This document shows positions 5,001 through 62,676 of a stretch of 64,000 bases of DNA, one piece after another. Location: positions 4,669-68,668 of the forward strand of contig NZ_JADJNN010000008.1 of NCBI RefSeq assembly GCF_016714285.1. The letters are read 5' to 3'. The position numbers and the translations under genes are program-made. Position 1 is the first letter of the stretch, and the number at the start of each line of letters is the position of its first letter. This DNA is from Nannocystis sp. (GTDB lineage: Bacteria > Myxococcota_A > Polyangia > Nannocystales > Nannocystaceae). The notes under the pieces are model-generated. The model saw nothing but the letters and a program-made list of their open reading frames with translations, searched no databases and was not told where the DNA came from.

Positions 5001-5057
5001 GAGATCACGGAGATCCTCGAGACATGGTTGCGCCGCTACCCGGGACCCTCGCGCTGA
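2042..5057 (+). CDS. Ser/Thr protein kinase fused to a C-terminal TPR-like repeat domain; reading frame shifts near 3925-3945 (frameshift or sequencing error)
   Basis: ATG at 2042; Hanks kinase motifs (GRGGMGSVY, VIK, HRDFTPRN, DFG, GTPRYMSPE) in frame 2 up to ~3930. From ~3930 the coding signal continues in frame 0 (AAWFAVLGYKLARLDERRGRRWAEGLEYLG... TPR-like helices) to the stop at 5057. Frame 2 after 3930 is Arg/Ala-rich junk ending at 4042. The ORF track therefore shows two pieces (1376..4042 and 3687..5057). Confidence 0.75.
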
Positions 5058-5082
5058 GCGAGGCCACCAGAAGGACCGAGAC

Positions 5083-5403
5083 ATGCCAGACCTGCTCACT
5101 GCATCCACGAATAGCTGCGATGACCCGAAGACCCCGCTGGTCGAGCTGTGTAGCGCGATCCGGCGGCCGAGGCCGTTGACGGGGAGCGTCGGCGGCGGCG
5201 GCGGCTCGGGTGGCAGCGGCCACATGCCGAACCCCGAGGAGCTGGTGGCCAAGGCGCTCGAGCACGTGTGGGACGCGCTGTCGGATCAGATCCAGACCCT
5301 GCGGGCCGAGAACCGCAGCTTGCAGGAGAAGATGGACGCGATGCAGCACAGCTTCGGCAGCGAGCTGGCGGCGGCGCGCAAGGTCGCCGAGCGCCAGCGC
5401 TGA
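5083..5403 (+). CDS. hypothetical small protein with a Gly-rich linker and a C-terminal coiled-coil (possible alternative start at ATG 5227)
   Basis: ORF 26 bp downstream of the kinase/TPR gene on the same strand, high GC3. C-terminal half (PNPEELVAKALEHVWDALSDQIQTLRAENRSLQEKMDAMQH...) is protein-like. Confidence 0.45.
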   Translation: MPDLLTASTNSCDDPKTPLVELCSAIRRPRPLTGSVGGGGGSGGSGHMPNPEELVAKALEHVWDALSDQIQTLRAENRSLQEKMDAMQHSFGSELAAARKVAERQR

Positions 5404-5490
5404 GCGTGACGGGTCGCCGCGGCGGCGCGACGCGAGGCCCTGGGATGAGGGGGCCGGCGTGCGCCGCCGCGGGATGTTGGCCTCGCTGGT

Positions 5491-5949
5491 TCACGCGGCG
5501 GCGCGGCGCGGGCGGGCGATCCGGAGATCGGGGCGCCCGCGCTCGAGCATGAAGCGCCACAGCGGCTTGTCGCTCTTGGCCCGGTTGCACGGGCCGCAGC
5601 TGGGCACCAGGTTGTCCGGGTGGTTGCTGCCGCCGCGCGAGCGCGGGACCACGTGGTCCCGCGTCACCTCGCGCTTGCACAGGCGCGCGCCGCAGTAGGT
5701 GCAGAGCGTGCGCACGTGCCAGAGGTAGTGGCGGAACTCGCTGGTGAAGCAGACATCGAGGCGGTCGTGGATAACGTCGGCGACGGAGGTCTTCTTGTAG
5801 CGTGCGGTCTCCCGGAGCCGGCCCAGACGCCCGTCGCCCTTGCCCTGGCGCAGGCCCATCTTGCGCAGATGGCGTGCCAGGTAGAACTCGGGGCCGCGCT
5901 CCGGGCGGGGCGTGAGGGTGTCGTATTCGTGTTTCAGCTTGACGTACAT
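5491..5949 (-). CDS. HNH endonuclease (small stand-alone HNH nuclease)
   Basis: 152-aa ORF with HNH motif C-YCG....-DH.VPRSRGG...DNLVPSC..CNRAKSDK. GGAGG Shine-Dalgarno sequence upstream of ATG 5949. 40 bp downstream of the AbrB-like gene on the same strand. Confidence 0.85.
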   Translation of the reverse strand: MYVKLKHEYDTLTPRPERGPEFYLARHLRKMGLRQGKGDGRLGRLRETARYKKTSVADVIHDRLDVCFTSEFRHYLWHVRTLCTYCGARLCKREVTRDHVVPRSRGGSNHPDNLVPSCGPCNRAKSDKPLWRFMLERGRPDLRIARPRRAAA

Positions 5950-5989
5950 GACGGCGCCTCCTTTCGGCTTGGAACGGGTGGTCGGTGGA

Positions 5990-6196
5990 TCAATCGCGGT
6001 AGGTCAGGGTGCTCCACTGCGGGACGGCGACCGGGCCGCCGCGGCGCAGCTCGACCTGGGCCTCGACCTCCATGTCGCCGCCGGCCAGGCGCACGCGGTC
6101 GCCGGTGCGGATGCACAGCTCGCGCAGGCGGGCCGGGGAGAGGGGGATGCAGTGGTCCTCGGTGCGGACCGTGATATCGGCGTGGATCGTGCGCAT
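5990..6196 (-). CDS. small AbrB/MazE/SpoVT-like (swapped-hairpin) protein, putative regulator/antitoxin or immunity partner of the HNH nuclease
   Basis: 68-aa ORF (MRTIHADITVRTEDHCIPLSPARLRELCIRTGDRVRLAGG...). Perfect AAGGAGG Shine-Dalgarno sequence 6 nt upstream of ATG 6194-6196. The pattern vR..D...IPl....LRelgI..GD.V.l resembles AbrB/MazE N-domains; this is pattern-based, not searched. Confidence 0.6.
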   Translation of the reverse strand: MRTIHADITVRTEDHCIPLSPARLRELCIRTGDRVRLAGGDMEVEAQVELRRGGPVAVPQWSTLTYRD

Positions 6197-6853: not shown

Positions 6854-9199
6854 TCAGGGCGGCGCGATGCGGGCGCGGAGGATGTGGTCGCCGAGGGCGA
6901 GGGCGTCCAGGCGATCGGGATGACCGTGCTGGTCTGGGCGCAGGCGGCCGATCCAGGTGTAGCGGCCCTCGAGGTGCGGGGCGCGGGCGTGCATGAAGAA
7001 GAACTGGCTGCCGCCGGTGTCCTTGCCGGCGTCGGCGATGCCGACCGCGCCGCGATCGAAGGCGTGGTCGCCGGGCTCGCTCGGGAGCACGAAGCCGGGG
7101 CCGCCCCAGCCGTTGCCGTCGGGGTCGCCGCCCTGAAGCACGAAGCCCGGGACGTCGCGGTGGAAGCGGAGGCCGTCGTAGTAGCCGCGGCGGGTGAGGG
7201 CGACGATCTCGGCGACGGCCCAGGGCGCGGCGGTGGGGTCGAGGTCGATCTCGAGGTCGCCGACCTCGGTGCTGAGGATCCAGCGGATCGGGGCGCCGGG
7301 CAGGCTGCGCGGGTCGAGCGGCGGCGGGGGCAGTGCTGCGGCGGTGGCGATCGAGGCGGCGTTGCCCGGGCCCGGGTCGGGGGCGGTGGCGATCGCGGCG
7401 GGGCCCTGGCCCTGGCCCTGGCCGCGGAGCTGCTGCACGCAGGCGCGGGCGGCCTTGCGGACGGCGGGGCTGGCGTGGGCGCGGCTGGCCTCGCAGACGG
7501 GGAGACCGGCGGCGACACCGGTGGCCGCGAGGGTGGCGAGGAGGGTGCTGTGCAGCTCGGGCTCGCGGGCGGCGTGGGCGGTGGCGAGGGCGGCGAGGCG
7601 CTGCCACAGCGGATCGCTGGCGGCGAGAAGCGATGGCTTGGCGTGGGTCGGTGGCTTGTCGTGCGGTGCGGCGATCACATCGGCGGCCGATCCGACGACG
7701 CCGAGGACCGGGTCGGCGAGGGCGCGCAGCAGCCAGGCGTGGACGATCGTGGTGGTCGCGGGGTCGTGCCACAGCGGGCCGAGAGCGGCGACGGCGGCGA
7801 GGCGCAGCTGTGGATCGGTGGCGGTGAGGAGCGCGTCGAGCCGGGCGGCGCGCGCGGGCCAGGGGCCGCCGAAGCCGTGGATCAGCGGGCCGAGCTCGTG
7901 GGCCTCGCGCTCGCCGGGGCGCAGCAGCGGGCTCTGGCAGACGAGCGGCGGGCGCCAGCGCGGGTCGTGGGCGAGGCGCGCGGCGAGCTGGCAGTCGATG
8001 CGGGCGAGCAGGCGACGACGAGCTTCGCGGCGGGCGTCGTCGAGGTTGGCTGCGTTGGTGGGTGGGTTCGTGGGCGAGTTGTTGTTGGTCGCGGTGGGTG
8101 GGCTCGTTGGTGTGTTGTTGTTGGTCGTGGCGGGTGGGTTGATCGGCGAGTTGTTGGTGGTCGTGGTGGTGTTGCGATCGATCGCGGTGCGCAGCTGCTC
8201 GAGGGCGTGGCGCTCGCGGATCGAGGGGGCGGTGGTCTCGCTGGCGAGGCACGCGAGGGCGGCGTGGAGCTGGCGGGCGTGGGCGAGGCGCTGGGGCTCG
8301 TCCTGCGTGCGGTCGGCGATGCTGCTGCGGGCCCAGGCGAGGACGGCGAGGACGGCGGTCTGGCGATCGGGGGCGATGAGGGCGGCGAGGCGGCGCGGGT
8401 CGCTGGCGGCGGCGGGCAGCTCGCGGGTGAGGCAGGCTTGCAGCGGCGGTGTGGCGCTGCGGCGGACCAGGCCGGCGAGGGCGAGGCGCTGGAGCTCGCG
8501 GTCGCTGCTGCGGGTGTGGTCCCGCAGGAGGGCGAGGATCGACGGATCGGGGGGCGGCGTGTGCTCGTTGGCGAGGGCGTAGAGGGCGGCGTAGGTGAGC
8601 GCGGGGTCGCTGGCCAGGGCGAGGAGGTTGGCGCGGGTCGGGGCGTCGAGCGGGTGCTTGCGGCGACCGAGCACGCCGAGGGCGATCGCGGCGGTGCTGC
8701 GCAGGGCCGGGCTCGCGGTCGGGGCGAGGGCGTCGCGCAGGACGGGCAGAGATGCGGGGCCTCCGAGGCGGCCGAGAGCCTCGGCGATGGCGCGGCGCTC
8801 GTCGGCGTCGGCGCGCGGCCAGGCGGTGAGGAGGGCGGCGTCGAGGTCGGTGAGCTCGGTGTCGAGGAGGGCGGCGATGCCGAGCGCACGCGCGGCGTGC
8901 TCGCGTCGGCGAGGATCGTCGCCGCGGAGCAGGGTGAGCAGGGCGGCGATCGCCGGCGGGTCGCCGACGCGTGCGAGGGCGAGGATAACCGGGCCGGGAT
9001 CGGGGTCGCCGAGGCGAGCGATGAGGGGGGCGCTGTCGCGGAGCAGCTCGAGCTCGAAGAGGGGGGTCGCGGGGATCGTTGTCGTGGTTGGGGCGGGGCC
9101 GGGGGGCGCGGCGGGGACCTGCGGGGGCGCAGCGGGGACCTGCGGGGGCGCGCAGGCGAGCAGGCAGCTCAGGGTCGTGAGGGCGAGGGCCGGGCGCAT
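6854..9199 (-). CDS. HEAT/PBS-lyase repeat lipoprotein with C-terminal cyclophilin-type peptidyl-prolyl isomerase domain
   Basis: 781-aa ORF. Lipobox LSCLLAC at the N-terminus. Repeated ALG..GD..A...L helical repeats. C-terminal cyclophilin motifs (GYYDGLRFHRDVPGFVLQGGDP...GGSQFFF). Internal Asn/Thr/Pro-rich tandem repeat encoded by ~42-bp repeats at ~8040-8180. Confidence 0.85.
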   Translation of the reverse strand: MRPALALTTLSCLLACAPPQVPAAPPQVPAAPPGPAPTTTTIPATPLFELELLRDSAPLIARLGDPDPGPVILALARVGDPPAIAALLTLLRGDDPRRREHAARALGIAALLDTELTDLDAALLTAWPRADADERRAIAEALGRLGGPASLPVLRDALAPTASPALRSTAAIALGVLGRRKHPLDAPTRANLLALASDPALTYAALYALANEHTPPPDPSILALLRDHTRSSDRELQRLALAGLVRRSATPPLQACLTRELPAAASDPRRLAALIAPDRQTAVLAVLAWARSSIADRTQDEPQRLAHARQLHAALACLASETTAPSIRERHALEQLRTAIDRNTTTTTNNSPINPPATTNNNTPTSPPTATNNNSPTNPPTNAANLDDARREARRRLLARIDCQLAARLAHDPRWRPPLVCQSPLLRPGEREAHELGPLIHGFGGPWPARAARLDALLTATDPQLRLAAVAALGPLWHDPATTTIVHAWLLRALADPVLGVVGSAADVIAAPHDKPPTHAKPSLLAASDPLWQRLAALATAHAAREPELHSTLLATLAATGVAAGLPVCEASRAHASPAVRKAARACVQQLRGQGQGQGPAAIATAPDPGPGNAASIATAAALPPPPLDPRSLPGAPIRWILSTEVGDLEIDLDPTAAPWAVAEIVALTRRGYYDGLRFHRDVPGFVLQGGDPDGNGWGGPGFVLPSEPGDHAFDRGAVGIADAGKDTGGSQFFFMHARAPHLEGRYTWIGRLRPDQHGHPDRLDALALGDHILRARIAPP

Positions 9200-9367: not shown

Positions 9368-9901
9368 ATGGCGAGGTCGGTGCATATTCTGTCGTTGCTG
9401 GACGACAGCGACATCGAGTGGTTGGTGCAGGTCGGGCTGCGCCTGAGCGTGCCGCCGGTGGCTCCGCTGGTGGAGGAGGGGCTGCGCACGCCGTTCCTCT
9501 ACATCATTCTTTCGGGGGCCTTTCTCGTGACGCAGAGCGCGACGGGGGCGACGGAGCGGTCGCTGTCGGTGATCCAGCGCGGGGAGCTGGTCGGGGAGCT
9601 GTCGTATCTCGACGCGCGGCCGCCGTCGGCGACGGTGCGGGCGGCCCGGGCCTCGCAGGTGCTGGCGGTGGCGCGCTCGGAGGTCGCGCGCAGGCTGCAG
9701 ACGGACGTCGGGTTCGCGGCCCGCTTCTACCGGGCGCTGGGGATCACGGTGGCGATGCGGCTGCGGGCCCTGACGCGCGGCGAGCCGGAGGACGAGCCGG
9801 ACCTCGAGCAGCTCGGGCTGGTGACGGTGGACGAGCGGCGCTTCGAGGCGATCATGCGCCGGCTGGAGGGGCTCCCAGGCGACGCAGACGCAGCGAGTTG
9901 A
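9368..9901 (+). CDS. cyclic nucleotide-binding domain protein
   Basis: 177-aa ORF starting at ATG 9368. cNMP-binding fold pattern ([12 protein letters not shown]...[23 protein letters not shown]). High GC3. Confidence 0.7.
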
Positions 9902-12323
9902 GCACGACGGTGAGGCTGCTGAGGGCCATCGCCAGGGCGGCGAGGGCGGGGTGGAGCGCGCGCAGGAAGCCCGGGGCGGCGGCGATCGGGTAGAGGGCGC
10001 CGGCGGCCACCGGGATCAGGACGAGGTTGTAGATCGAGGCCCACAGCAGGTTCTGGCGGACCACGGCGAGGGTGCGGCGCGACAGCTCCAGGGCCTCGGG
10101 CAGGCCGCGGAGGTCGCTGCGCATGAGGGTGAGGTCGGCGGCGTGGATCGCGACCTCGGCGCCGCTGCCCATGGCGACGCCGAGGTCGGCCTGGGCCAGG
10201 GCGGGGCCGTCGTTGATGCCGTCGCCGACCATGCCGACCGGGCCGTCCCGCTGGAGCGTGACGATCGCGGCGGCCTTGTCGGCCGGGAGCACGCCGGCGA
10301 TCACGTCGGCGGCGGGGATGCCGGCCTGGGCGGCGATGGCGATGGCGACCTGGCGGTGGTCGCCGGTCAGCATGAGCACGCGCAGGCCGGCGCGGCGCAG
10401 GGTGGCGACGGCCTCGGCGGCCTCGGGGCGCAGGGCGTCGGCCAGGGCGAGCAGGCCGAGCAGGGCGCCGTCGCGGGCCAGCCAGACGAGGGTCTGCGGG
10501 GCCTGCAGGGCGGCGGCGGGGAGGGCGAGGAGGGCGGGTGTCGCTTGGGACAGGTGGGTGGCGGTGGCGGTGGATGTCCCGGCGGACAGGTCGGGTGTCG
10601 CTTGGGACAGGTGGGTGGCGGCTGTCCCGGGGGACAGGTTTGATGTCTCTTGGGACAGGTTGATCGTGGCGCTGGCGGTGGCTGTCCCGGCGGACAGGTC
10701 GGCGGCGAGGGCGGTGAGGGCGGTGGTGTCGACGTGGTTGCTGGTGAGCCAGCGTTCGCTGCCGATGAGGAGGTCGTGGCCGCCGACGCGGGTGCGCAGG
10801 CCGTGGCCGCCGACGGCGCGGAGGTTGTCGCTGGCGGGGAGTTCGAGGCCGGCGTCGCGGGCGGCGGTGACGATCGCGCGGGCGAGCGGGTGCTCGCTGC
10901 GCTGCTCGGCGGCGGCGGCGAGGCGGAGGAGCTCGCGCGGGTCGACGCCGGGGGCGGGCGCGAGGGCGCTGAGCGTGGGGCGGCCGCGGGTGAGGGTGCC
11001 GGTCTTGTCGAGGACGAGGGTGCGCAGGGCCTGGGCTCGCTCGAGCGCGGCCATGTTCTTGAACAGGACGCCGCGGCGGGCGGCGGCGCCGGTGCCGACG
11101 ACGATCGCGGTCGGGGTGGCGAGGCCGAGGGCGCAGGGGCAGGCGATCACGAGGACGGCGACGGCGCGCAGGAGGGCCGCGCCGGCGCCCTGGTCGGCGA
11201 GCAGCCACCACAGCGTGAAGGTGAGGCCGGCGAGGGCGAGGACGACGGGGACGAACACGGCGGCGACGCGGTCGACCAGGCGCTGCACGGGGGCCTTGCT
11301 GGCCTGGGCGGCGCGGACGAGGCGGACGATCTGGGCCAGGGCCGTGGCTGCGCCGACGCGGGTGGCCTCGATCTCGAGGGCGCCGTCGCCGTTGACGGTG
11401 GCGCCGGTGACGGGGTCGCCGGTGGTCTTGCCGACGGGGCGGCTCTCGCCGGTCAGCATGCTCTCGTCGACCTCGGAGGCGCCGCTGCGGACGACGCCGT
11501 CGACCGGGATCGCGGCGCCAGGGGCGACCAACACGGTGTCGCGGACCCGGACCTCTGCGGCGGGGATCTCGAGCTCGTGGCCGTCGCGGCGGACCCGGGC
11601 GGTGGCGGGGCGGAGCGCGAGCAGGGCCCGGATCGCGGCGCCGGCCTGGCCGCGGGCGCGGGTCTCGAGCAGGCGGCCGACGCCCACGAGGGTGATGATC
11701 GCGGCGGAGGTCTCGAAGTGGACGTGGTGGCCGAGAGCGTGGCTGCCGAGGGACTCGGCGACGACCACCGGGACGCTGGCGAGGAAGGCCACGCCGGCGC
11801 CGAGGCTGATCAGGACGTCCATGGTGGCGGCGCGGGCCTTGAGCGCGTGCCAGGCCCCGCGCAGGTGCGGCGCGCCGGTGTAGGCGAGGACCGGCAGGGC
11901 GAGCGCCAGCAGGAGCCACAGGAGCCACGGGGCGGCCGTCCAGGCGCCGAGCAGGTCGAAGTCGCGGCCCATACCGAGGACCATCAGCGGGGCGGTGCAG
12001 GCGATCCCGACGAGGACGCGGCGGCGCTGACTGGCGAGCTCGGCGGCGCGGGCCAGCAGCTCGGCATCGTCGCCGCCCTCGCTGCCCGCGATCACGCTGT
12101 AGCCGGCGGCCTCGACGGCGGCGACCAGCTCACCGCGAGTGACTGTGCCGGGGGTCGCCAGGTGCACGCGGGCGGTCTCACTGGCGAAGTTGACGGCGGC
12201 CGCGGCGACGCCGGGGACGCTGGTGAGCGCGCGTTCGACGGTGTTCGCACAGTTGGCGCAGCGCAGCCCGGCGATCGCCAGCTCGAACTCGGGGTCGTCG
12301 GCGGCGGGCACGGAGCCGAGCAT
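9852..12323 (-). CDS. heavy-metal-translocating P-type ATPase (CopA-like) with N-terminal HMA domain; carries an in-frame low-complexity insertion in the N-domain
   Basis: 823-aa ORF. CxxC metal-binding motif ([12 protein letters not shown]), CPC motif ([11 protein letters not shown]), DKTGTLT phosphorylation motif, [10 protein letters not shown] hinge. A 70-80 aa Ser/Thr/Ala-rich insertion (LSQET/LSAGT repeats) is encoded by the GGACAGGT repeat array at 10540-10720. Confidence 0.9.
10540..10720. repeat. intragenic array of GGGACAGGT / TGTCCCGGCGGACAGG repeat units inside the P-type ATPase gene
   Basis: Direct repeats of gtcgcttgggacaggtgggtggcgg (x2), tgtcccggcggacaggtcgg (x2) and related units read directly in sequence. 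Confidence 0.85.
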
Positions 12324-22285: not shown

Positions 22286-24358
22286 ATGTGTGGGGCCGTG
22301 CGTGGCGCGGAGCGACTGCTGTGGGGTTCGTTGTGGCTGCTCGGCTGCGGGGCGGGCGAGCGGGCGCCGTCGGCCAGCCCGTCGCCGCCGCCGGCGAGCG
22401 GGGCGGTCGGTGGGCAGGAGCGCAGCGCGGGGCCGCCGGCTGCGGGTGCGGGGACCGGTGGTGGGATCGCGGGTGTTGCGGGTCTCGCTGGTGGGTCGAG
22501 CGCTGCGGGGCCGGGCGTGGTGGCGCAAGCGGTCGCGGCGAGGCCGGGGCCGGCGGACGCGGGCAGCTGCCCGGCGCAGGACGATCCGGGCTACGGGCTG
22601 CTGGTGGTGCCGCAGCGGGCGGTGGTCGGGCAGCAGCTGACGATCCTGGCGGCGACGCTCGACGACGAGGCGGCGATCGCCGTGCGCGTCGACGCGGGGC
22701 CGCGGGTGCAGGAGGCGGGGGAGGGTGTCCCTGCGGACATGTCCTTTCGGACTGGTGTGCCGGCGGCGACGATCGTCCGCCTGACGCCGACGCAGGCCGG
22801 CGAGCTGACGGTGGTCGCCGGGCGCGGCGGGGTCGGGCGCGCGTGCTTGCGGGTCAAGGTGCGGGCCGCGGCGGCGCGCGAGGCCCCGCCGGCGGCGCCC
22901 GGGAATCAGGCGTGGCCGAGCGTGCGCGGGTGGGACGCGGGCGAGGAGGCGCTGTACTCGGCGTGGCTGCGCGAGCTGTTCCACGCCGAGCTCGGGGCCG
23001 ACCTGGCGACCACGGCGCTCGACCAGATCACGAGCGACGCGGGGCGCAACCTGCTGCATGGGTCGCTCGGCTGGGACGAGGACGCGAAGCACCCGACCGG
23101 GCTGGCGATGCGGCCGGACTGCGCCGACGTGCCGTACTTCTTGCGGGCGTACTACGCGTGGAAGCGCGGGCTGCCCTTCGTGTTCCGCGGCTGCTCGCGC
23201 GGGAGCCCGGGCAAGGCGCCGCGCTGCGGTGAGGGGACGGACAACGCGGCGCCGCAGGACGGCACCGGGCCGCAGCCGGGGCAGCTCGGGGCGGTGCAGT
23301 ACTACCTGCGGCGGACGCTGGCGTGGGGGGTGCATACGGGCAACGGGCGGGTGGCGATGACGGACGAGCGCAGCGACCTGTACCCGGTGCGCCTCGATCG
23401 CCGGGCGCTGCGGCCGGGCACGGTGTACGCGGATCCCTACGGGCATATTTTGGTGCTGGTGGAGCTGTTCGAAGGGACAGGTGGTCGACCGGGGGTGCTG
23501 TACGCGGTCGACGGTCAGCCGGACGGGAGCATCACGCGCAAGCGGTTCTGGGAGGGCAACTTCCTGTGGAACCCGGACCCGGGGCTCGGCGGATCGGGGT
23601 TCAAGAACTTTCGTCCGGTGGTGGTGAGGGACGGGGTGGCGGCGCAGATGACCGACGCGGAGATCGCCGGGGCGCCGGGCTACGGGGATGGATCGCCGGC
23701 GCAGGCCGAGCTGGCGGCGCCGGCCTTTTATGACGCGATGGAGCGCATCATCACGCCGGGGACCCGCGACGCGCTGCTGGCCCAGGAGGAGGCCGTGGCG
23801 GCGCTGTTCGAGCAGGCCCGCGTGCGCGTGACCTCGGTGGCCAACGGCGACGACTACTTTAAAAAGAACCCGGGCGCGACGGTGGCGATGCCGGAGGGCT
23901 TCAAGGTGTTCGAGACGACGGGGGCGTGGGAGTCGTACTCGACGCCGGCACGCGACCTGCGGCTGCTGATCGCGATGGACGTGGTGCGCGGCTTCTCGGA
24001 CAAGGTGCGGCGCCAGCCGGCGGTGTTCGGGGTGACCGAGGGGCCGGGGCTGGACGAGTTGATCGTGAAGCTCGAGCAGGCGCGCGGGGAGCTGCTGGCC
24101 GCGCCGCGCTTTCGCTTCGAGTACCGGCGCAGCGACGGGTCGACGTGGGGGCTGACGCTCGCGGATCTGATGACGCGGGCGAGCGCGCTCGAGGCGGCCT
24201 ACAACCCGAACGACTGCCCGGAGCTGCGCTGGGGCGCGAAGCCGGGGAGCGACGAGGCGAGGACCTGCGGGCGCACGGCGCCGGCCGAGCAGCAGGCGAA
24301 GATGCAGCGGTACCGGAGCTGGTTCGCGGAGCGCAAGCGTCCGGCGCGGGGGACCTGA
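22286..24358 (+). CDS. hypothetical secreted lipoprotein (~690 aa)
   Basis: ATG 22286 gives MCGAVRGAERLLWGSLWLLGC (lipobox LLGC). Long ORF with good GC3 and globular composition; no family recognised by eye. Confidence 0.7.
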   Translation: MCGAVRGAERLLWGSLWLLGCGAGERAPSASPSPPPASGAVGGQERSAGPPAAGAGTGGGIAGVAGLAGGSSAAGPGVVAQAVAARPGPADAGSCPAQDDPGYGLLVVPQRAVVGQQLTILAATLDDEAAIAVRVDAGPRVQEAGEGVPADMSFRTGVPAATIVRLTPTQAGELTVVAGRGGVGRACLRVKVRAAAAREAPPAAPGNQAWPSVRGWDAGEEALYSAWLRELFHAELGADLATTALDQITSDAGRNLLHGSLGWDEDAKHPTGLAMRPDCADVPYFLRAYYAWKRGLPFVFRGCSRGSPGKAPRCGEGTDNAAPQDGTGPQPGQLGAVQYYLRRTLAWGVHTGNGRVAMTDERSDLYPVRLDRRALRPGTVYADPYGHILVLVELFEGTGGRPGVLYAVDGQPDGSITRKRFWEGNFLWNPDPGLGGSGFKNFRPVVVRDGVAAQMTDAEIAGAPGYGDGSPAQAELAAPAFYDAMERIITPGTRDALLAQEEAVAALFEQARVRVTSVANGDDYFKKNPGATVAMPEGFKVFETTGAWESYSTPARDLRLLIAMDVVRGFSDKVRRQPAVFGVTEGPGLDELIVKLEQARGELLAAPRFRFEYRRSDGSTWGLTLADLMTRASALEAAYNPNDCPELRWGAKPGSDEARTCGRTAPAEQQAKMQRYRSWFAERKRPARGT

Positions 24359-25972: not shown

Positions 25973-26839
25973 GTGCGCCGCCTCGCCTGTCTCTGGCTCG
26001 CCTCCTCGCTGATCGCGGTGGGCGGGCCGGCGCGCCCGCTGCACGCGGCGCCGGTCAGCGAGCGCGCGGCCGATGTGCCGCTCGCGGTCGAGGGACCTGC
26101 GCCAAAGGACAGGTCGGGAGAGGCTGGCGCGGAGGACAGGTCGGCTGGCTCCGGGGACAGGTCGGGGTCAGCTGGCCCGGAGGACAGGTCGGGAGAGGCT
26201 GGCCCGGAGGACAGGTCGGGGTCGGCTGGCCCGGAGGACAGGTCGGCTGGCTCTGGGGACAGGTCGACGCCGCGGTCGGCGGCCGAGGGGATGCCCGCGG
26301 CGCCGCGGGTGCCGGCGCCGACGGCTGCGATCAAGGATGGGGGTCCAGAGCTGGTCACGGTGGCGGTCGGGCTCGGGCCCTCGGCGCCGGGCTCGAAGGC
26401 GGAGACGGCGGTGGTCGACGCGCTCGAGCGCGCCGCCCGGGCCTCGCAGGCGCCGCCGACGCTGGTTCGCCGCCTGCGGGCCGGGGCGGGCGAGGGGCGG
26501 GCGATCTGCCGCGAGCGTCGCGACGACCTGGTGCTGCTGCTCGAGTACATGCCCGATCGACCCGAGCCGGTGTTGGTGCCCCGGGACTGCCGCCTCGACC
26601 GTGAGCTGGCGCTCCGGGGGAAGGAGGCCGCAGGTGAGCCGGCCCTCATCGGCGTACTGTGGGAGGAACATCGGGCGCTCGTCCGCGGCGGGGCCCGCGA
26701 GCGCAAGGTGAGGATCAGCCGCAAGGTGAAGACGGGCCTCATCGCTGGCGGGGCGATCGTGGTCGTCGGGCTGGCGATCGTGCTGGTTGTGGTCAACAGC
26801 TTGCGCCGCGAGACGGTCGTGCTCACAGTGGGGCCATGA
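25973..26839 (+). CDS. secreted/membrane-anchored protein with (G/A)E(A/D)GPEDRSG tandem repeats
   Basis: GTG 25973. Signal peptide LACLWLASSLIAVG. Seven ~8-9-aa repeats encoded by the GAGGACAGGTCGG tandem array at 26095-26270. C-terminal TM helix. Stop overlaps the next ATG (ATGA). Confidence 0.6.
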   Translation: MRRLACLWLASSLIAVGGPARPLHAAPVSERAADVPLAVEGPAPKDRSGEAGAEDRSAGSGDRSGSAGPEDRSGEAGPEDRSGSAGPEDRSAGSGDRSTPRSAAEGMPAAPRVPAPTAAIKDGGPELVTVAVGLGPSAPGSKAETAVVDALERAARASQAPPTLVRRLRAGAGEGRAICRERRDDLVLLLEYMPDRPEPVLVPRDCRLDRELALRGKEAAGEPALIGVLWEEHRALVRGGARERKVRISRKVKTGLIAGGAIVVVGLAIVLVVVNSLRRETVVLTVGP

Positions 26840-27879
26840 CGCTTGCGGCACGTTTCGGGCGCTGGTTCATTTCTTTGTCCCTCGCGCTCGTGGCGGCTGT
26901 ATTGCTGTACGTGGGGCTGTTCGTGGGGCTGTTCGTGGGCCCCGTCGGGGTGGCACACGCGGAGTCGGGCACGCTGGCGGGCTGGCAGCTGTCGACGGCG
27001 AGCAGCGAGCTGATCGTCGGGCGGGTGACGCTGCGCTACGACCCGAGCCTGGCCGACGAGGCGCGCGAGCTGGCGGACTACATCCCGGGCTCGTGGCGGG
27101 AGATCGAGAAGGCGCTGGCCGGCGACCTCGACGACCGGCTGACGATCAACTTCGTGGCCCACGCGGGGCGCATCGCCGAGGGCACCGGCATGCCGCGCTG
27201 GGCCGCGGGTGTGGCCCACTCGGAGAGCGGGGAGATCGTGATCTCGAAGCACGCGCCCGACGGCTCGCTCAGCGACCTCGACTCGCTGCTGCGCCACGAG
27301 ATGGCCCACGTCGCCCTGTATCGGGCCACGGGCGGGCAGGAGCTGCCGCGCTGGTTCCACGAGGGCGTGGCCGAGAGCTTCGGCAACGAGATCGATCTGC
27401 TGCGCAGCCAGACCCTCGCGGGCGCGGTGTTCGGGCCCGGCGTGCCGGCGCTCGATCAGCTCGAGGACAACTTCCACGGCATCGACCCGATCGCGGTCAC
27501 GGTGAGCTACGCGGCGGCCCGCGACTTCGTGAACCACCTCCGCTACCGCGACGACGGCTCCGACCTGCGCCAGCTGATGACCGAGCTGCGCCGCGGCACC
27601 AACTTCGAGGCCGCGTTCGTCAAGGCCTTCGACCGCAGCCTCGGGGAGCTCGACGGCGAGTGGCGCAGCGGGCTGACGGGGCGCTTCGTGTGGTTCCCGG
27701 TGATCAGCTCTGGCGGGCTGCCCTTCGCCGCCCTGTCGCCGCTGGTCGTGATCGCGGCGGTGCGTCGGCGTCGCCAGCTGAAGGCCGGCTGGGACCGCCT
27801 GAGCCGCGAGGACGAGGCGCTGCACGCCGAGGTCGCGGCGGTGCTGCGCCGGCCCGGGCTGGTGCTGGCGCCGTCCTGA
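26836..27879 (+). CDS. membrane-anchored putative zinc metallopeptidase (HEMAH motif, MA-clan-like)
   Basis: ATG 26836 overlaps the upstream stop. N-terminal TM helix. HEMAHV (HExxH) followed by EGVAESFGNE. C-terminal TM helix. 347 aa. Confidence 0.7.
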   Translation: MTLAARFGRWFISLSLALVAAVLLYVGLFVGLFVGPVGVAHAESGTLAGWQLSTASSELIVGRVTLRYDPSLADEARELADYIPGSWREIEKALAGDLDDRLTINFVAHAGRIAEGTGMPRWAAGVAHSESGEIVISKHAPDGSLSDLDSLLRHEMAHVALYRATGGQELPRWFHEGVAESFGNEIDLLRSQTLAGAVFGPGVPALDQLEDNFHGIDPIAVTVSYAAARDFVNHLRYRDDGSDLRQLMTELRRGTNFEAAFVKAFDRSLGELDGEWRSGLTGRFVWFPVISSGGLPFAALSPLVVIAAVRRRRQLKAGWDRLSREDEALHAEVAAVLRRPGLVLAPS

Positions 27880-27905
27880 GCGGGTGAGACCTCGCCTGGC
27901 CTCAG

Positions 27906-27980
27906 GGACATGTCCGTGGGGCCTCGGCTGCTGACTCCGTCCTGAGGGGGGCGCTTCGCCTGGCCCCACGGACATGTCTG
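27906..27980. repeat. inverted pair of GGACATGTC(C/T)GTGGGG 16-mers flanking a ~45-bp spacer in the intergenic region
   Basis: gggacatgtccgtgggg at 27905-27921 and ccccacggacatgtct at 27965-27980, read directly. Confidence 0.85.
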
Positions 27981-28080
27981 CAAGGCCAGGTGGATCGGCG
28001 CGGCCGAGGTCGAGGGGGCAGGTGGCGCGCCGAGGGCGCGGCTTTACAGGAGGGGGCGCGCTGGGCTATGGCCCCGGACG

Positions 28081-28662
28081 ATGCAACGGATCGGTGCAGG
28101 GACGCTGCGCGGGCGGGTGCTTCGGCCGCTGCCGGCTGCGATCGCGGGCCTGCGTCCGACCGGGTCGAAGGTGCGGGGGGCGATCTTCGATCGCCTGCAC
28201 CTCGGGCTCCCGGACATGGTGGTGCTCGATCTGTTCGGGGGCAGCGGGGCCCTGACGATCGAGGCGCTGAGCCGCGGCGCAGCCCGGGCCACGATGTTTG
28301 AGCAGCACCCGAAGGTGCTTGCCCACCTGCGGACGCAGCTCCGTGAGTTCGCGCTCGAAGATCGGGTGCGGCTGTTCGCGGGCGACGCCTGCGAGCTGCT
28401 GCTGCGCCCGGTGGCGGTGCTCGGCGGGCCCTTCTCGCTGGTCCTGGTCGATCCGCCCTACGCGATCACCACGGCCGTGCTGCCGATCGTGGCGGCGCGC
28501 CTGAGCGGGGGTCTGCTGGTCCCGGGGGCCACGCTGGTGTGCGGGTACGATCGCGCGACTCGCCTGCCCGCGTGGCCGGCGGGGTTCACCGTCGAGACCT
28601 CGCGTCACTACGGTCAGGCCGGGGTGGATTTTGTCCGCTGGGACGGCGGCTCCAGCCGCTAA
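28081..28662 (+). CDS. rsmD: 16S rRNA (guanine966-N2)-methyltransferase RsmD
   Basis: 193 aa. LDLFGGSGALTIEALSRGA SAM-binding motif and DPPY motif typical of RsmD. Confidence 0.85.
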   Translation: MQRIGAGTLRGRVLRPLPAAIAGLRPTGSKVRGAIFDRLHLGLPDMVVLDLFGGSGALTIEALSRGAARATMFEQHPKVLAHLRTQLREFALEDRVRLFAGDACELLLRPVAVLGGPFSLVLVDPPYAITTAVLPIVAARLSGGLLVPGATLVCGYDRATRLPAWPAGFTVETSRHYGQAGVDFVRWDGGSSR

Positions 28663-35295: not shown

Positions 35296-36716
35296 ATGGC
35301 AACCGTGGTCCAGCTCCCGCGACTCAGCGACACGATGGAAGAGGGCGTGATCGCCAAGTGGCGGATCAAGGTCGGCGACAAGGTCAAGCGCGGCCAGGTC
35401 ATCGCCGAGATCGAGACCGACAAGGCGACGATGGAGTTCGAGTCATTCGACTCGGGCGTCGTGCTCAAGCTGATAGCGACGGAGGGCGAGACGCTGCCGC
35501 TCGGGGCGCCGATCGCCGTGCTCGGGCAGGCGGGCGAGAGCCCGGACGGGGCGAGCGCGGGTGCCGGCGCGAGTGTTGGCGCGAGCGAGCCGGCAGCGGC
35601 GACGCCGGCGGCTGAGGCGAGCAAGCCGGCAGCGGCGGCTGAGGCGAGCAAGCCGGCAGCGGCGGTGGCCGAGGCGGCGGCGAGCAGTCCCGAAGGCCAG
35701 GTAGCGAAGGACATGTCCAAAAAGCCAGCCGGGGACGGCGCGCGGGTGCCGGCGTCGCCGCTGGCGCGGCGTCTGGCGCGGGAGCACGACCTCGAGCTCG
35801 GCGAGATCAGCGGCAGCGGCCCGCACGGGCGGGTCGTGAAGGCGGACGTCGACCAGGCGATCGCGGCGGCTGGCAAGCCGCCAGCGACCGCTGCGGCTGC
35901 GGGGACGAGCGCTGCTGCGGCGCCGGTTGCTGCGGGGACGCGCTCGGGGGGAGCGACGGCCGCGGCCGCCGTGAAGTCCGTGGGTGCGGCGACGGCCGAG
36001 GTCGACGCCGACGGGCGGCCCTACGTGTCGCGCCCGGCGCGGACGATCAAGCTGAGCCAGATGCGCAAGACGATCGTCAAGCGCATGGGCCAGAGCAAGC
36101 GCGAGGCGCCGCACATCTACCTCACGACGGCGATCCGCATGGACCGGGCGCTGGCGGTGCGGGCCGAGATCAACGCGGCGGTCGACGGGACCAAGGTCAG
36201 CGTCAACGACCTCATCGTGCTGGCCTGCGCCAAGGCGCTGCGCAAGCACCCGAAGGTGAACGCCAACTACACCGAGGCCGGCATCGTCGAGCACGGCGAC
36301 ATCCACGTCGGCGTGGCGGTCGCGCTGGACGACGGGCTGGTGGTGCCGGTGGTCCGCTTCGCCGAGCAGAAGTCGATCACGGCGATCTCGCGCGAGACGC
36401 GGGACCTCGGCCTGCGGCCAAGGCCAAGGAGCTGCGCCCGGAGGAGATGGCGGGGAGCACCTTCACGATCAGCAACCTCGGGATGCTCGGCGTGGAGAGC
36501 TTCATGGCGGTGATCAACCCGGGCGAGGGGGCGATCCTCGCGGTCGGGGCGACGGCCGACGAGGCGGTGGTCGAGGACGGGGCCGTGGTGATCCGCAAGG
36601 TCATGCGCGTGACGATGTGCTCCGACCACCGGGCCTTCGACGGGGCCGACAGCGCCCGCTTCCTGCAGACGCTGAAGGCGCTGCTCGAGGCGCCGCTGGC
36701 GATGTTCAGCTGAGCG
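35296..36716 (+). CDS. dihydrolipoamide acetyltransferase E2 of pyruvate dehydrogenase; frame broken by an apparent 1-nt deletion near 36417 (probable sequencing error in a G run)
   Basis: Lipoyl domain (EIETDKATME), Ala/Pro-rich linkers and E3-binding domain in frame 1 up to ...SRETRDLGLR. The catalytic-domain continuation (AKAKELRPEEMAGSTFTISNLGMLGVESF...DHRAFDGAD) is in frame 0 to stop 36716. The ORF track shows 35296..36513 and 36447..36713. Confidence 0.85.
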
Positions 36717-46124: not shown

Positions 46125-48041
46125 TCACGCATCCTCCGCGGGGGCCTCGTTGGCGGCGGAGCTGTCCTCCGGGACAGCCGGACGCGTGCTGTCCTCCGGG
46201 ACAGCCGCGGACGCGTGCTCGGCGGAGCTGTCCTCCGGGACAGCCGCGGACGCGTGCTCGGCGGAGCTGTCCTCCGGGACAGCCGCGGACGCGTGCTCGG
46301 CGGAGCTGTCCTCCGGGACAGCCGCGCGCGCGCGCTCGACGACGCCGCGCTCCCACAGCTGCTCGTCGATCGCGCGCATGAGGGCCGCGGTGCTGCGGCG
46401 CTCGTTGGCGCTGATGAAGTAGGTGTGGCGGTCGGCGTCGGCGCGGCGGTGGTTGAGCTCGTCGGGGCCCAGGCGGTCGATCTTGTTGTAGACCCACAGG
46501 CGGGGCACGGCGCCGGCACCGATCTCGCCGAGGATCGCCTCGACGGTGGCGCGCTGCTGGTCCTGGTCGGGGTCGCTGGCGTCGACGACGACGAGCAGGA
46601 GGTCGGCCTCGGCGACCTCCTCGAGGGTGGCGGAGAAGGCCTGGACGAGCGCGGGGGGGAGGTCGCGGATGAAGCCGACGGTGTCGAGGAGGACGACCTC
46701 GTAGTCCTTGGGGAAGCGGATCCTGCGGACGCTGGGGTCGAGGGTGGCGAACAGCTTGTCCTCGGCGACGACGGCGCTGTCGGTGACGGTGTTGAGCAGG
46801 CTGCTCTTGCCGGCGTTGGTGTAGCCGACGATCGCGACCACGGGCACGCCGGTGCGCCGACGCAGGGCCCGACGCTGGTCGCGGCGCTGCTTGAGCGCGA
46901 GCAGGCGGCGCTCGAGGTCGTGGATGCGCTCCTTGGCGCGGCGGCGGTCGATCTCGAGTTTGGTCTCGCCGGGGCCGCGACCACCGATGCCGCCGGCGAG
47001 CCGCGACATGGCGGTGCCGTGGCCGATCATCCGCGGCAGGAGGTAGCGCAGCTGGGCCAGCTCGACCTGCAGCTTGCCGTCGGCCGAGGTGGCGTGCTGG
47101 GCGAAGATGTCGAGGATGAGGGTGGTGCGGTCGATGACCTTGAGGTCGGTGCGCTCGCCGATCTCGCGGGCCTGCGAGGGGGTGAGGTCGGGGTCGCAGA
47201 TCAGGAGCTCGACGTCCTGGGCGAGGGCCCGCACGAGCACGTCGCGCAGCTTGCCCTGGCCGAAGAAGGTGCGCGGGTCGGGGCCGGGGCGGCGCTGGGT
47301 GGCGAGGTCGACTAAGTGGAGGCCGTCGGTGCGGCACAGCTCGCGCAGCTCCTGCTCGCGGGCGTGCAGCTCGGGGCCCTCGCCCTGGTGGATCATGAGG
47401 GCCATGGCGCGGGTGCCCTGCGACTCGGCGCGCGCGCCCGCGGTGGCGGCGACGAGGCCGGCCTCGAGGTCGCGGATGAAGCCGAGGAAGTCGGAGGGCA
47501 TGTCCGCGGCGGGCCGCATGCCGGTGGTGTGGCCGGGGTCGTCGTCGTCGCGGGCGAGCACGCCGAGCGGGACGCGCGGGAAGCCGCGCACGACGAAGAT
47601 GTCCTTTGAGCCAGGTTGTGGCGGGGCCAGGCTGGCGAGGTCGATCTGGACGCCGGCGGGGCCGGTGTGGATCGCGGCGAGGAGGTCGAGGCGCAGCTTG
47701 GCGAGGTCGGCGAGCTCCTCGCGGGTCGGCGGGTCGGGGACCAGGTGGGTGAGGACCAGCCGGACGCCGCGCAGGCGGCCGCCCTGGCCGCGCACGCGGG
47801 TGAACTCCGGGAGGGCGAGGCTGTGGGCGTCGCCGAGGATGACGCGCTGCACGCGGCCGCGGCGGTCGATGAAGAGGCCGAGCTGGCGGTTGAGCTGGTG
47901 CGAGAGCTCGAGCAGGTCGCGCGCGAGCACGGCCGAGATGACGCTCGTCGGCGGGACCTGGCGCGCGCCGAGCCGCTGCAGCGCGCGGGCCTGGCTGCTC
48001 TTGAGGTTCGCCGTGTCGCCGTGGACGATCGGGTCGCTCAC
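46125..48041 (-). CDS. hflX: GTPase HflX with N-terminal extension and C-terminal AAVPEDSSAEHAS tandem-repeat tail
   Basis: GTG 48041 overlaps the stop of the upstream gene (GTGA). HflX N-domain and G-domain motifs (GYTNAGKSSLLN, DTVGF, NKID). Five C-terminal 13-aa repeats encoded by 39-bp tandem repeats at 46160-46326. Confidence 0.9.
   Translation of the reverse strand: MSDPIVHGDTANLKSSQARALQRLGARQVPPTSVISAVLARDLLELSHQLNRQLGLFIDRRGRVQRVILGDAHSLALPEFTRVRGQGGRLRGVRLVLTHLVPDPPTREELADLAKLRLDLLAAIHTGPAGVQIDLASLAPPQPGSKDIFVVRGFPRVPLGVLARDDDDPGHTTGMRPAADMPSDFLGFIRDLEAGLVAATAGARAESQGTRAMALMIHQGEGPELHAREQELRELCRTDGLHLVDLATQRRPGPDPRTFFGQGKLRDVLVRALAQDVELLICDPDLTPSQAREIGERTDLKVIDRTTLILDIFAQHATSADGKLQVELAQLRYLLPRMIGHGTAMSRLAGGIGGRGPGETKLEIDRRRAKERIHDLERRLLALKQRRDQRRALRRRTGVPVVAIVGYTNAGKSSLLNTVTDSAVVAEDKLFATLDPSVRRIRFPKDYEVVLLDTVGFIRDLPPALVQAFSATLEEVAEADLLLVVVDASDPDQDQQRATVEAILGEIGAGAVPRLWVYNKIDRLGPDELNHRRADADRHTYFISANERRSTAALMRAIDEQLWERGVVERARAAVPEDSSAEHASAAVPEDSSAEHASAAVPEDSSAEHASAAVPEDSTRPAVPEDSSAANEAPAEDA
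46160..46326. repeat. five tandem ~39-bp repeats each containing the perfect palindrome GCTGTCC-TCCG-GGACAGC, inside the 3' end of hflX
   Basis: Read directly (gagctgtcctccgggacagccgcggacgcgtgctcggcg x5). Confidence 0.9.
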
Positions 48042-49996: not shown

Positions 49997-50466
49997 GGGC
50001 GGCAGGTTATCCGACCTGCCGGTGCTGTGACCAGAGGCGCGCCGAAAGTCGAGGCGGGGTGGGGCGCGGGGGGCGGGTCGTGGGGTGCAGGGCCGGGCTG
50101 TCGGGGCGGGTCCTGGGCCAGGAGCAATTGCTGGCCAGGCGCGGCGTTGCTGGCCATGGCGGGGCGCGGGGCGATTTGGCGCATGATGAACGGTCGCGGG
50201 TGCGGGAGTTGCCGGGCCGGGGGCCGCGTCGGATCGGGCCGGGACCGGAGCCAGACCTCCGGACCTCGCCGCGTCGACGAGCCGGGCGCGGCGGGTGTCG
50301 GGGCCGGGCCTTTTGGACATGTTCCTTTGGACATGTCCCTTGGCGCAGGCCGTGGCGCGTGGCGACGCGCGTGTGTCCAGAGCGGCGGGCCGACGCGCGG
50401 CGGCGTGGCTTGACCGGGGTCGGCGGTCTGGCTACGAAGGATCGGTTTTTGGCGGGAGGTGCTGCG

Positions 50467-55305: not shown

Positions 55306-55370
55306 GGCTGTCCGAGGGGACAGGTTGCGGCCGGCGTACTTGATGTGAGGCTGTCCGAGCGGACAGGTCA
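55290..55370. repeat. two direct copies of TGATGTGAGGCTGTCCGAG(G/C)GGACAGGT, each with a CTGTCC-N4-GGACAG palindrome, between convergent genes whose stop codons lie in or next to the copies
   Basis: Read directly. Candidate bidirectional terminator or repeat element. Confidence 0.8.
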
Positions 55371-57698: not shown

Positions 57699-57848
57699 GG
57701 CGCGGGGGACAGGTGCGAGGAGACAGGTGCGAAGGGACAGGTTGGAAGGGACAGGTGGGATGGCCGCGGGGACAGGTGCGAAGGGACAGGTGGGGATGGC
57801 CGAAGGGACAGGTGGGAGGGGACCGGTGGGGATGGCCGAAGGGACAGC
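57699..57848. repeat. intergenic tandem array of eight degenerate 14-22-bp units built on GGGACAGGTG (…GGACAGGTGCGAAG / GGACAGGTTGGAAG / GGACAGGTGGGGATGGCCGAAG…)
   Basis: Read directly between the two M16 peptidase genes. All copies are on the + strand. Confidence 0.9.
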
Positions 57849-62614: not shown

Positions 62615-62676
62615 CCCGGGCTGGCCCCCGGGACATGCGCCGAAGGACATGGCAGATCGGACATGTCCTCGCGGCC

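Follow-up and report, generated by a model that had tools for sequence, protein, structure and literature searches.

In Nannocystis sp., a peptidase-MA gene and rsmD, which belongs to a 16S rRNA methyltransferase family, are separated by an intergenic region holding two copies of a palindromic sequence, hereafter called the doublet. We studied the doublet within a 64,000-nt stretch of this genome (GCF_016714285.1, contig NZ_JADJNN010000008.1, forward-strand positions 4,669 to 68,668; G+C 73.8%), hereafter the window, whose own numbering is used throughout; loci of related DNA carry L numbers. A first-pass annotation had noticed two 16-mers in opposite orientation immediately after an HExxH peptidase gene and about 100 bp upstream of rsmD. 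The 16-mers are indeed there, with coordinates off by one base, and the placement holds: the doublet starts 16 nt past the peptidase stop codon and ends 91 nt before the rsmD ATG. The peptidase-rsmD-aminotransferase gene order is conserved among relatives.

Two palindromes between a peptidase gene and rsmD

The 16-mer GGACATGTCCGTGGGG occurs exactly at 27906-27921 on the plus strand, and its reverse complement follows with one mismatch at 27964-27979 (AGACATGTCCGTGGGG on the minus strand), leaving a gap of 42 nt. A scan of the window that tolerated up to two mismatches returned four matches against 0.17 expected, a number that none of 100 shuffles reached. Complementarity extends beyond the 16-mers into arms of 29 nt each (27895-27923 and 27962-27990), 86% complementary and 38 nt apart. 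The core of the arm, GGACATGTCC, is a palindrome in its own right, and each arm as a whole is a near-palindrome of about 30 bp with the form CCTGGCC-N4-GGACATGTCC-N4-GGCC(AGG). Because each copy is palindromic, the two would look inverted to each other in either orientation, and they align equally as a direct repeat (32 nt, 81%, 64-bp spacing).

A long stem-loop had also been proposed, and secondary-structure prediction agrees. RNA of 27880-28000 folds at -78.5 kcal/mol on the plus strand (z = -5.6; none of 200 shuffles as good) and at -70.8 kcal/mol on the minus strand, with the GC-rich doublet hairpin, directly downstream of the peptidase gene, at -75 to -78 kcal/mol. Single copies fold at -23.9 (copy 1) and -22.2 kcal/mol (copy 2), and the single copies of relatives at -28 to -31. 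Rfam 15 contained no family that reached its gathering score; the best chance match, to miRNA hairpin models, scored 25.8 bits against a threshold of 51. We searched the region 27880-28000 and the spacer by blastn against about 640 kb of related DNA. The 96-bp doublet with its 38-nt spacer has no other copy there, and only the palindrome of about 18-33 nt recurs.

Table 1. Features of the peptidase-rsmD region, in window coordinates.
Feature	Position	Strand	Description
Peptidase-MA gene with HEMAH	26902-27879	+	Start approximate, stop codon 27877-27879; Pfam Peptidase_MA_2; called from codon usage
Gene-end segment A	27863-27884	+	TGCTGGCGCCGTCCTGAGCGGG; spans the stop codon; source of the duplicated flank; direct repeat 86%, spacing 66
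Copy 1, composite palindromic element	27895-27923		CCTGGCC-tcag-GGACATGTCC-gtgg-GGCC; right outer arm degenerate
14-bp module in copy 1	27897-27910		TGGCC-tcag-GGACA; module pattern match
Core decamer, copy 1	27906-27915		GGACATGTCC; junction of two abutting modules
Gene-end segment B	27929-27950	+	TGCTGACTCCGTCCTGAGGGGG; non-coding duplicate of segment A inside the spacer between the copies
Copy 2, composite element	27959-27990		CCTGGCC-ccac-GGACATGTCT-gcaa-GGCCAGG
14-bp module in copy 2	27961-27974		TGGCC-ccac-GGACA; module pattern match
Promoter-like block	28040-28069	+	GGCTTTACA-N14-GGGCTAT; conserved, before rsmD, downstream of the repeat element and separate from it
rsmD, 16S rRNA methyltransferase family	28081-28662	+	Pfam Cons_hypoth95, E = 5e-36, residues 3-184 of 193

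The spacer between the copies reveals how the doublet arose. Segment A, made up of the final 17 nt of the peptidase coding sequence (stop codon included) and five further bases, agrees with its duplicate, segment B, at 19 of 22 positions, a score matched by 1 of 1000 shuffles. Over the longer intervals 27863-27915 and 27929-27978, the alignment scores 55 in direct and 40 in inverted orientation. A flank duplicated in direct orientation implies that the doublet originated by tandem direct duplication of a segment of about 64 bp containing the gene end and the element. The asymmetric N4 spacers also show how each copy is oriented. Copy 1 has the orientation of the relatives' single copy (an 18-nt, 100% plus-strand match to L207), and copy 2 is its reverse complement, with minus-strand blastn matches of 31 nt at 96.8% to L207 and of 33 nt at 90.9% to L001-3. 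When 32-mers were aligned by hand, copy 2 differed from the relatives' copy at 2 of 32 positions inverted and at 8 direct. The simplest history would thus be duplication followed by a flip of the palindrome interior in copy 2.

The orthologous gap, from the peptidase stop codon to the promoter-like block, changes content among relatives. The window has two copies of the element. Its closest relatives, L001-3 and L207, have one (in L207, CTGGCC-ttgc-GGACATGTCC-gtgg-GGCCAGGTG), and further downstream a second hairpin that resembles a terminator and is tailed by T-rich sequence. In L004 the copy is degenerate (GGACCTGTCC) and a T-rich tail comes after it, and N. punicea and N. bainbridge (loci L125 and L126, respectively) place a simpler ACCTGTC-N5-GGACAGGT hairpin directly after the peptidase stop. 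L008, a more distant relative, and L009 lack the element and have a gap of 43 bp. Ordinary T-tailed hairpins occur in L226 (metagenome contig Ga0075163_10009469), upstream of GGCTTTACA and in place of the repeat, and in L002 at 2656-2684, downstream of it.

The promoter-like block itself is more constant. The window, L002, L207 and L008 all share GGCTTTACA-N14-GGGCTAT; L004 keeps CTTTACA and GGGCTA(C) only, and the L001 sequence stops just past TTTACA. A strict sigma-70 scan did not call the block. It ends 11 nt ahead of the rsmD ATG (window 28040-28083), so that, if it is a promoter, rsmD mRNA would be nearly leaderless. Two regulatory roles can be set aside here. An rsmD operator, one of the structures first proposed for the doublet, fits poorly, since the promoter block is conserved yet the element is missing in L008 and L009 and replaced in L226, and the wider family is depleted in divergent gaps. 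A sigma-54 or sigma-70 promoter element was also rejected: the spacing is unfit and a scan found none.

A modular palindrome family in Nannocystaceae

The doublet belongs to a family that is hyper-abundant in Nannocystis, other Nannocystaceae and uncultured relatives of the window's organism. Its building block is a 14-bp dyad, TGKCC-N4-GGMCA (search pattern in the window TGKCCNNNNGGMCA), which the window contains 28 times where 0.38 would be expected. Enrichment is confined to a spacer of exactly four bases, all other spacers yielding 0-2 occurrences. The extended consensus is GAC-M-TGKCC-N4-GGMCA-K-GTC, and two abutting modules create the GGACA|TGTCC core (GGACATGTCC), of which the window holds 13 at one mismatch or fewer against 1.67 expected. 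The N4 spacer varies freely between modules. Flanks are unrelated between copies, and shared sequence never exceeds about 30 bp.

We scanned genomes of 185,579 species with the pattern CTGGCCNNNNGGACATGTCC, and at least 113 stretches matched. Nannocystis and Nannocystaceae contributed 64 of these at least 113 matches listed, the sources being N. punicea, N. pusilla, N. exedens, N. bainbridge, N. radixulma, strain RBIL2 and metagenome-assembled genomes (MAGs) of Nannocystaceae; the remainder were single matches in scattered taxa. In metagenomes, the rsmD promoter pattern proved unspecific as a query (at least 120 stretches, mostly unrelated gut and marine contigs), with L207 and L226 informative. 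With the ascertained site masked where applicable, the Nannocystaceae loci from the genome scan hold 132 spacer-4 modules in 477 kb (2.8 per 10 kb; other spacers 0-11), and other GC-rich taxa hold 2 in 215 kb (0.09 per 10 kb). A 21-kb Plesiocystis locus holds none, and unbiased syntenic loci range from 2.4 to 4.9 spacer-4 modules per 10 kb. Extrapolation gives an estimate, as opposed to a count, of some 3,000-6,000 modules per genome of 12-13 Mb. Further copies of the motif are present in the window as well as in related genomes, and the description of the site as an extragenic palindromic-element-like member of a repeated motif family is borne out.

Copies gather just past stop codons and also occur in tolerant parts of coding sequence. 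For a positional census, we applied a self-trained codon-usage gene caller to 639 kb, 84% of which was called coding. The 274 modules divide into 145 in predicted coding sequences (CDS) and 129 in intergenic DNA, where they are about 5-fold enriched per base. Density depends on the kind of gap, reaching 3.2 modules per kb in convergent and 1.6 in co-directional gaps and falling in divergent gaps to 0.25, the level of CDS (0.27). The distance to the nearest stop codon has a median of 30 nt, with quartiles at 11 and 62 nt. For L004, L125 and L126, gene calls from an independent pipeline give the same positional picture.

Locally, the family expands when the element and its flank are duplicated in tandem. 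Modules occur singly, abutting in 14-bp phase, or duplicated in tandem with a period of 24-120 bp. Of 68 neighbouring module pairs spaced 20-120 bp, the orientation is clearly direct in 44 and clearly inverted in 2, the other 22 being ambiguous; with the flanks at the doublet directly duplicated as well, the inverted pair loses the defining status first given to it. In phased arrays, GGACATG recurs every 14 bp, three times at 62622-62677 and twice at 50307-50338, and such arrays are also found in L057. The aminotransferase-P460 gap has five copies in N. bainbridge and one, at the last position, in N. punicea. A convergent 62-bp gap at 55306-55367 carries modules at 55309 and 55352, both with TGATGTGAGGC in front of them; here, as at the doublet, the stop-codon context was apparently copied along with the module. 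Slippage at palindromes is thus evident locally, as a pattern.

Growth also takes place inside genes. Coding copies fall into the three frames in the numbers 35, 17 and 2, the favoured reading GAC-ATG-TCC being the frame compatible with G+C at third codon positions (GC3). Just upstream of the peptidase gene, a plus-strand gene at about 25973-26839 contains an in-frame array of about seven modules (26095-26240, the GGACAGGTCG variant) that encodes KDRS/EDRS/GDRS repeats forming a linker after a signal peptide. Among orthologues of this protein, L008 has four units, which read PGPGDMS; three units occur in L001, one in L004 and one or two remnants in N. punicea and N. bainbridge. The linker is hypervariable and built from the DNA repeat, and the in-frame arrays confirm that modules do lie in coding sequence. 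We rejected a protein-level cause for coding copies, namely selection on a PGDMS/PEDRS motif: the word also turns up outside coding DNA and in several frames, and it forces the rare codon CCT.

Origin and possible roles of the doublet

We consider it probable that the site, which lies in the 3' untranslated region (UTR) of the peptidase gene upstream of the rsmD promoter, belongs to a REP-like (repetitive extragenic palindromic), Nannocystaceae-specific family of palindromic repeats and has been duplicated locally, and that any effect of its hairpin on the transcript is a by-product. Its course begins with an ancestral single copy in the peptidase 3' UTR upstream of the conserved rsmD promoter, as L001-3 and L207 still have it. 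In the window's lineage, a segment of about 64 bp made up of the last 17 nt of the gene, the stop codon and the element was then duplicated in direct orientation, slipped-strand or template-switch events at the palindrome possibly accounting for both duplication and flip. Dispersal through the genome would operate at the DNA level, for which a hairpin-recognising transposase of the RAYT (REP-associated tyrosine transposase) or IS200 kind may serve as a model, and the bias towards gene 3' ends may mirror where insertions are tolerated. Peptidase mRNA extending through the site would fold the doublet into a hairpin of -75 kcal/mol, a possible barrier at the 3' end that we take to be a by-product with no dedicated regulator behind it.

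Several observations weigh against this account. No transposase, mobilising protein or binding protein is linked to the family, and the dispersal mechanism is a guess; nor does a target-site duplication or a defined end speak for transposition. Unlike classical REPs, the modules are located in predicted CDS more often than not. In L226, the peptidase-rsmD gap is occupied by a canonical hairpin followed by TTTTT. The strict half-site spacing with conserved sequence and the 14-bp-phased arrays suit a protein-binding site equally. Here and in the closest relatives only, the sense hairpin is 9-12 kcal/mol better than the antisense one, by way of G.U pairs in N4 (-75 vs -66 kcal/mol in the window, -31 vs -21 in L001 and -28 vs -16 in L207), which hints at RNA-level selection at the peptidase-rsmD locus. 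This advantage in the window and its closest relatives is one shared event.

The last of these observations bears on a functional RNA, which we think unlikely. On that reading, the doublet would terminate or pause transcription of the peptidase operon, or shield its 3' end from exonucleases, and so insulate rsmD with its own promoter. Such a hairpin is in the right place, 16 nt past a stop codon and upstream of the conserved rsmD promoter block, in a family whose modules lie at a median of 30 nt past stops and reach a density in convergent gaps 13-fold that of divergent ones. The same slot holds a classical hairpin with TTTTT in L226 and a T-rich tail behind the degenerate copy in L004, and at this locus the sense RNA outdoes the antisense in stability. 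The details argue otherwise. No T-run follows the stem (the next bases are GGTGGATCGGCGCGG), and a terminator scan returned 0 sites. Intergenic copies across the family show no T enrichment downstream (T fraction 0.164 against 0.162 on the other side). Of the terminator first suggested, taken in its canonical intrinsic form, the site thus has only the hairpin after a gene. Half of the copies lie within genes, L001-3 and L207 carry a separate T-tailed hairpin downstream of the element, and L008 has nothing in its place.

Nor does the stem vary as a selected RNA helix would. At arm position 3 we found no covariation (6 G-C pairs against about 8 expected, p = 0.38), and the outer 3 nt of the arms are no more complementary than partner-shuffled controls. 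Co-directional gaps show no excess of sense-strand G.U over A.C (6 vs 13), and family-wide the sense RNA has no stability advantage, being better in 24 cases against 38. We likewise discarded selection for UUCG tetraloops in N4: only 15 of the 200 spacers read TTCG or CGAA, and near stops the lead of the sense orientation (6 vs 2) rests on too few cases.

Half-sites that are conserved in sequence without covariation are what a DNA-binding protein would favour, and it is conceivable, if rather improbable, that the doublet represents two sites recognised by an abundant protein, specific to the lineage, that binds or modifies DNA. The reader might be a nucleoid-associated protein or a dimer that binds TGKCC-N4-GGMCA cooperatively. 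Alternatively, the modules might be a signal like HIP1 (GCGATCGC), a highly iterated palindrome known from cyanobacteria (PMC5861425, PMC4390886), and tied to a methyltransferase that acts on the CATG/ACATGT centre. The exact 5-N4-5 dyad, with enrichment at spacer 4 alone, is in keeping with such a site, as are the modules abutting in 14-bp phase (50307-50338, 62622-62677 and L057) and the presence of modules in both coding and non-coding DNA, again like cyanobacterial HIP1 (PMC5861425, PMC4390886). A transcription factor would not be expected to prefer gene 3' ends or to avoid divergent promoter regions. Moreover, no candidate reader protein was identified, the N4 spacer and the flanks vary freely, and copy number at orthologous sites shifts between close relatives (0, 1, 2 or 5).

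A broader version of this idea, to which we give little credence, is that TGKCC-N4-GGMCA is a genome-wide Nannocystaceae signal and more than selfish DNA, read by an abundant, lineage-specific protein, for instance a nucleoid or roadblock protein or a CATG-centred methylase or repair system. If so, the modules would serve as marks of gene 3' ends, in a clade where U-tract terminators are missing from such sites, and slippage-prone arrays would also generate hypervariable in-frame linkers in secreted proteins.

The MITE (miniature inverted-repeat transposable element) first suggested here would be a non-autonomous transposon, inserted after the peptidase gene and ahead of rsmD, whose 29-bp terminal inverted repeats enclose a 38-bp body. 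It has its two long inverted arms, total size (about 96 bp) and intergenic position in its favour and is nonetheless highly improbable, as the doublet recurs nowhere in the roughly 640 kb compared, the body (27924-27961) is unique in that DNA and duplicates the adjoining gene end, the bases flanking 27895 and 27990 (…GACCTCG | … | TGGATCG…) form no direct repeat and hence no target-site duplication, relatives hold a single arm-sized element at the same site, and other family members are single palindromes or direct arrays.

Known repeats, implications and further copies

The closest known parallels in working to this probable repeat family are the REP elements and BIMEs (bacterial interspersed mosaic elements) of Enterobacteria and Pseudomonas, where REPINs (REP doublets forming hairpins) are mobilised by RAYT transposases (PMC3116915, PMC3337134). 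The likeness is considerable: a short imperfect palindrome of 20-35 bp, confined to one lineage and scattered in hundreds to thousands of copies whose flanks are unrelated, most frequent in the convergent and co-directional gaps behind genes, rare in divergent gaps, and single or clustered. Like a REPIN, the Nannocystis doublet can fold into a long hairpin. The family departs from REPs in that about half of its modules (145 of 274) lie in CDS, some in in-frame arrays, so that it is not extragenic in the strict sense. It departs from REPINs in that its clusters are direct tandem duplicates, with only 2 of 68 pairs clearly inverted. Its unit is also modular, with 14-bp modules abutting in phase, and no RAYT is linked to it. 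The family belongs to Myxococcota, for which our search of the literature (subscription-only papers lie outside it) turned up no REP/RAYT system and nothing relevant on palindromic, REP or RAYT repeats in Nannocystis or myxobacteria. The search likewise gave no description of the motif in bacteria, and on GGACATGTCC it returned only papers on p53 response elements.

With HIP1, the family shares a short over-represented palindrome confined to one lineage, found in coding and non-coding DNA and persistent at orthologous positions. The Nannocystis module differs in being a gapped 5-N4-5 dyad with extended arms, whereas HIP1 is a solid octamer, and in its 3'-end bias, its tandem arrays and the absence of a known cognate methyltransferase. 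Rickettsia palindromic elements (RPEs) are about 100-150 bp long with conserved bodies. Like them, the Nannocystis repeats are tolerated in-frame within genes as well as between genes; unlike them, the Nannocystis units measure 14-30 bp and increase in number when low-complexity linkers undergo local duplication in tandem. Intrinsic terminators have in common with the doublet a GC-rich stem-loop shortly after a stop codon, but the repeat has no U-tract and no sense-strand bias, and its stem is a conserved word where a terminator would have a freely varying helix.

Once the family is recognised, the site is ordinary; the family itself is a palindromic repeat of modular build, very abundant and found specifically in Nannocystis-like myxobacteria. 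For the peptidase-rsmD locus little changes: the hairpin would be a repeat copy in a 3' UTR, and neither gene would have a regulator built for it. The wider interest would lie in a REP-like system outside Gammaproteobacteria in which the spread and persistence of repeats can be studied. The family is also a possible clue to transcript ends in very GC-rich myxobacterial genomes, and an example of how DNA repeats expanding in-frame can make hypervariable protein linkers. In practice, polymorphism in module copy number could be used in strain typing, and gene callers and assemblers working on Nannocystis-like genomes should be warned of the repeats.

Several further arrays are worth recording. 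Five identical modules (TGTCCTCCGGGACA) at 46163-46320, mostly with a 39-bp (13-codon) period, lie in the 3' end of a predicted minus-strand CDS (46125-48041). Three modules at 10575-10696, with periods of 48 and 60 bp (multiples of 3), fall within another (9852-12323, minus strand). An array of three modules with a 36-bp period at 57761-57846 sits between the minus-strand genes 56316-57698 and 57849-59189 and ends 2 nt from the stop of the latter. The phased array at 62622-62677 nearly fills a 62-bp co-directional gap, and that at 50307-50338 occupies a divergent one. In the aminotransferase-P460 gap of N. bainbridge (L126, 12888-13151), the five copies are CCTGTCY-N4-GGNCAGGTC elements with starts 38-57 bp apart, a BIME-like cluster expansion, and the N. 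punicea counterpart (L125, 12885-12988) is single. In L004, 100 N at 8925-9024 (an assembly gap or mask) separate Coq4 from the signal-peptide protein gene, with duplicated sequence on both sides.

A core copy is kept near the 5' end of the same gene of about 600-680 amino acids at window 22726-22744, L001 2131 and L004 5918. Its retention at an orthologous position in three lineages implies that some copies persist over considerable divergence.

We also rejected a start-codon or leaderless-mRNA signal, as just a few sites fit (35709, L013, L063 and L088) and most copies lie after stops or inside genes; the frame bias of coding copies does not support it either, because GC3 codon usage predicts that bias for GAC-ATG-TCC. 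At 35709-35718, the ATG within GGACATGTCC could be the true start codon of the downstream gene (MSKKPAGDG…), with the GC3 signal falling just upstream. Of the genes beside the doublet, rsmD encodes a protein for which an exact look-up in public assemblies gave no record. The peptidase has the HEMAH motif in its translation, and its closest homologues, about 340 amino acids long, are uncultured proteins at up to 89% identity and, at about 65-71%, proteins of Nannocystis species and Nannocystaceae MAGs.

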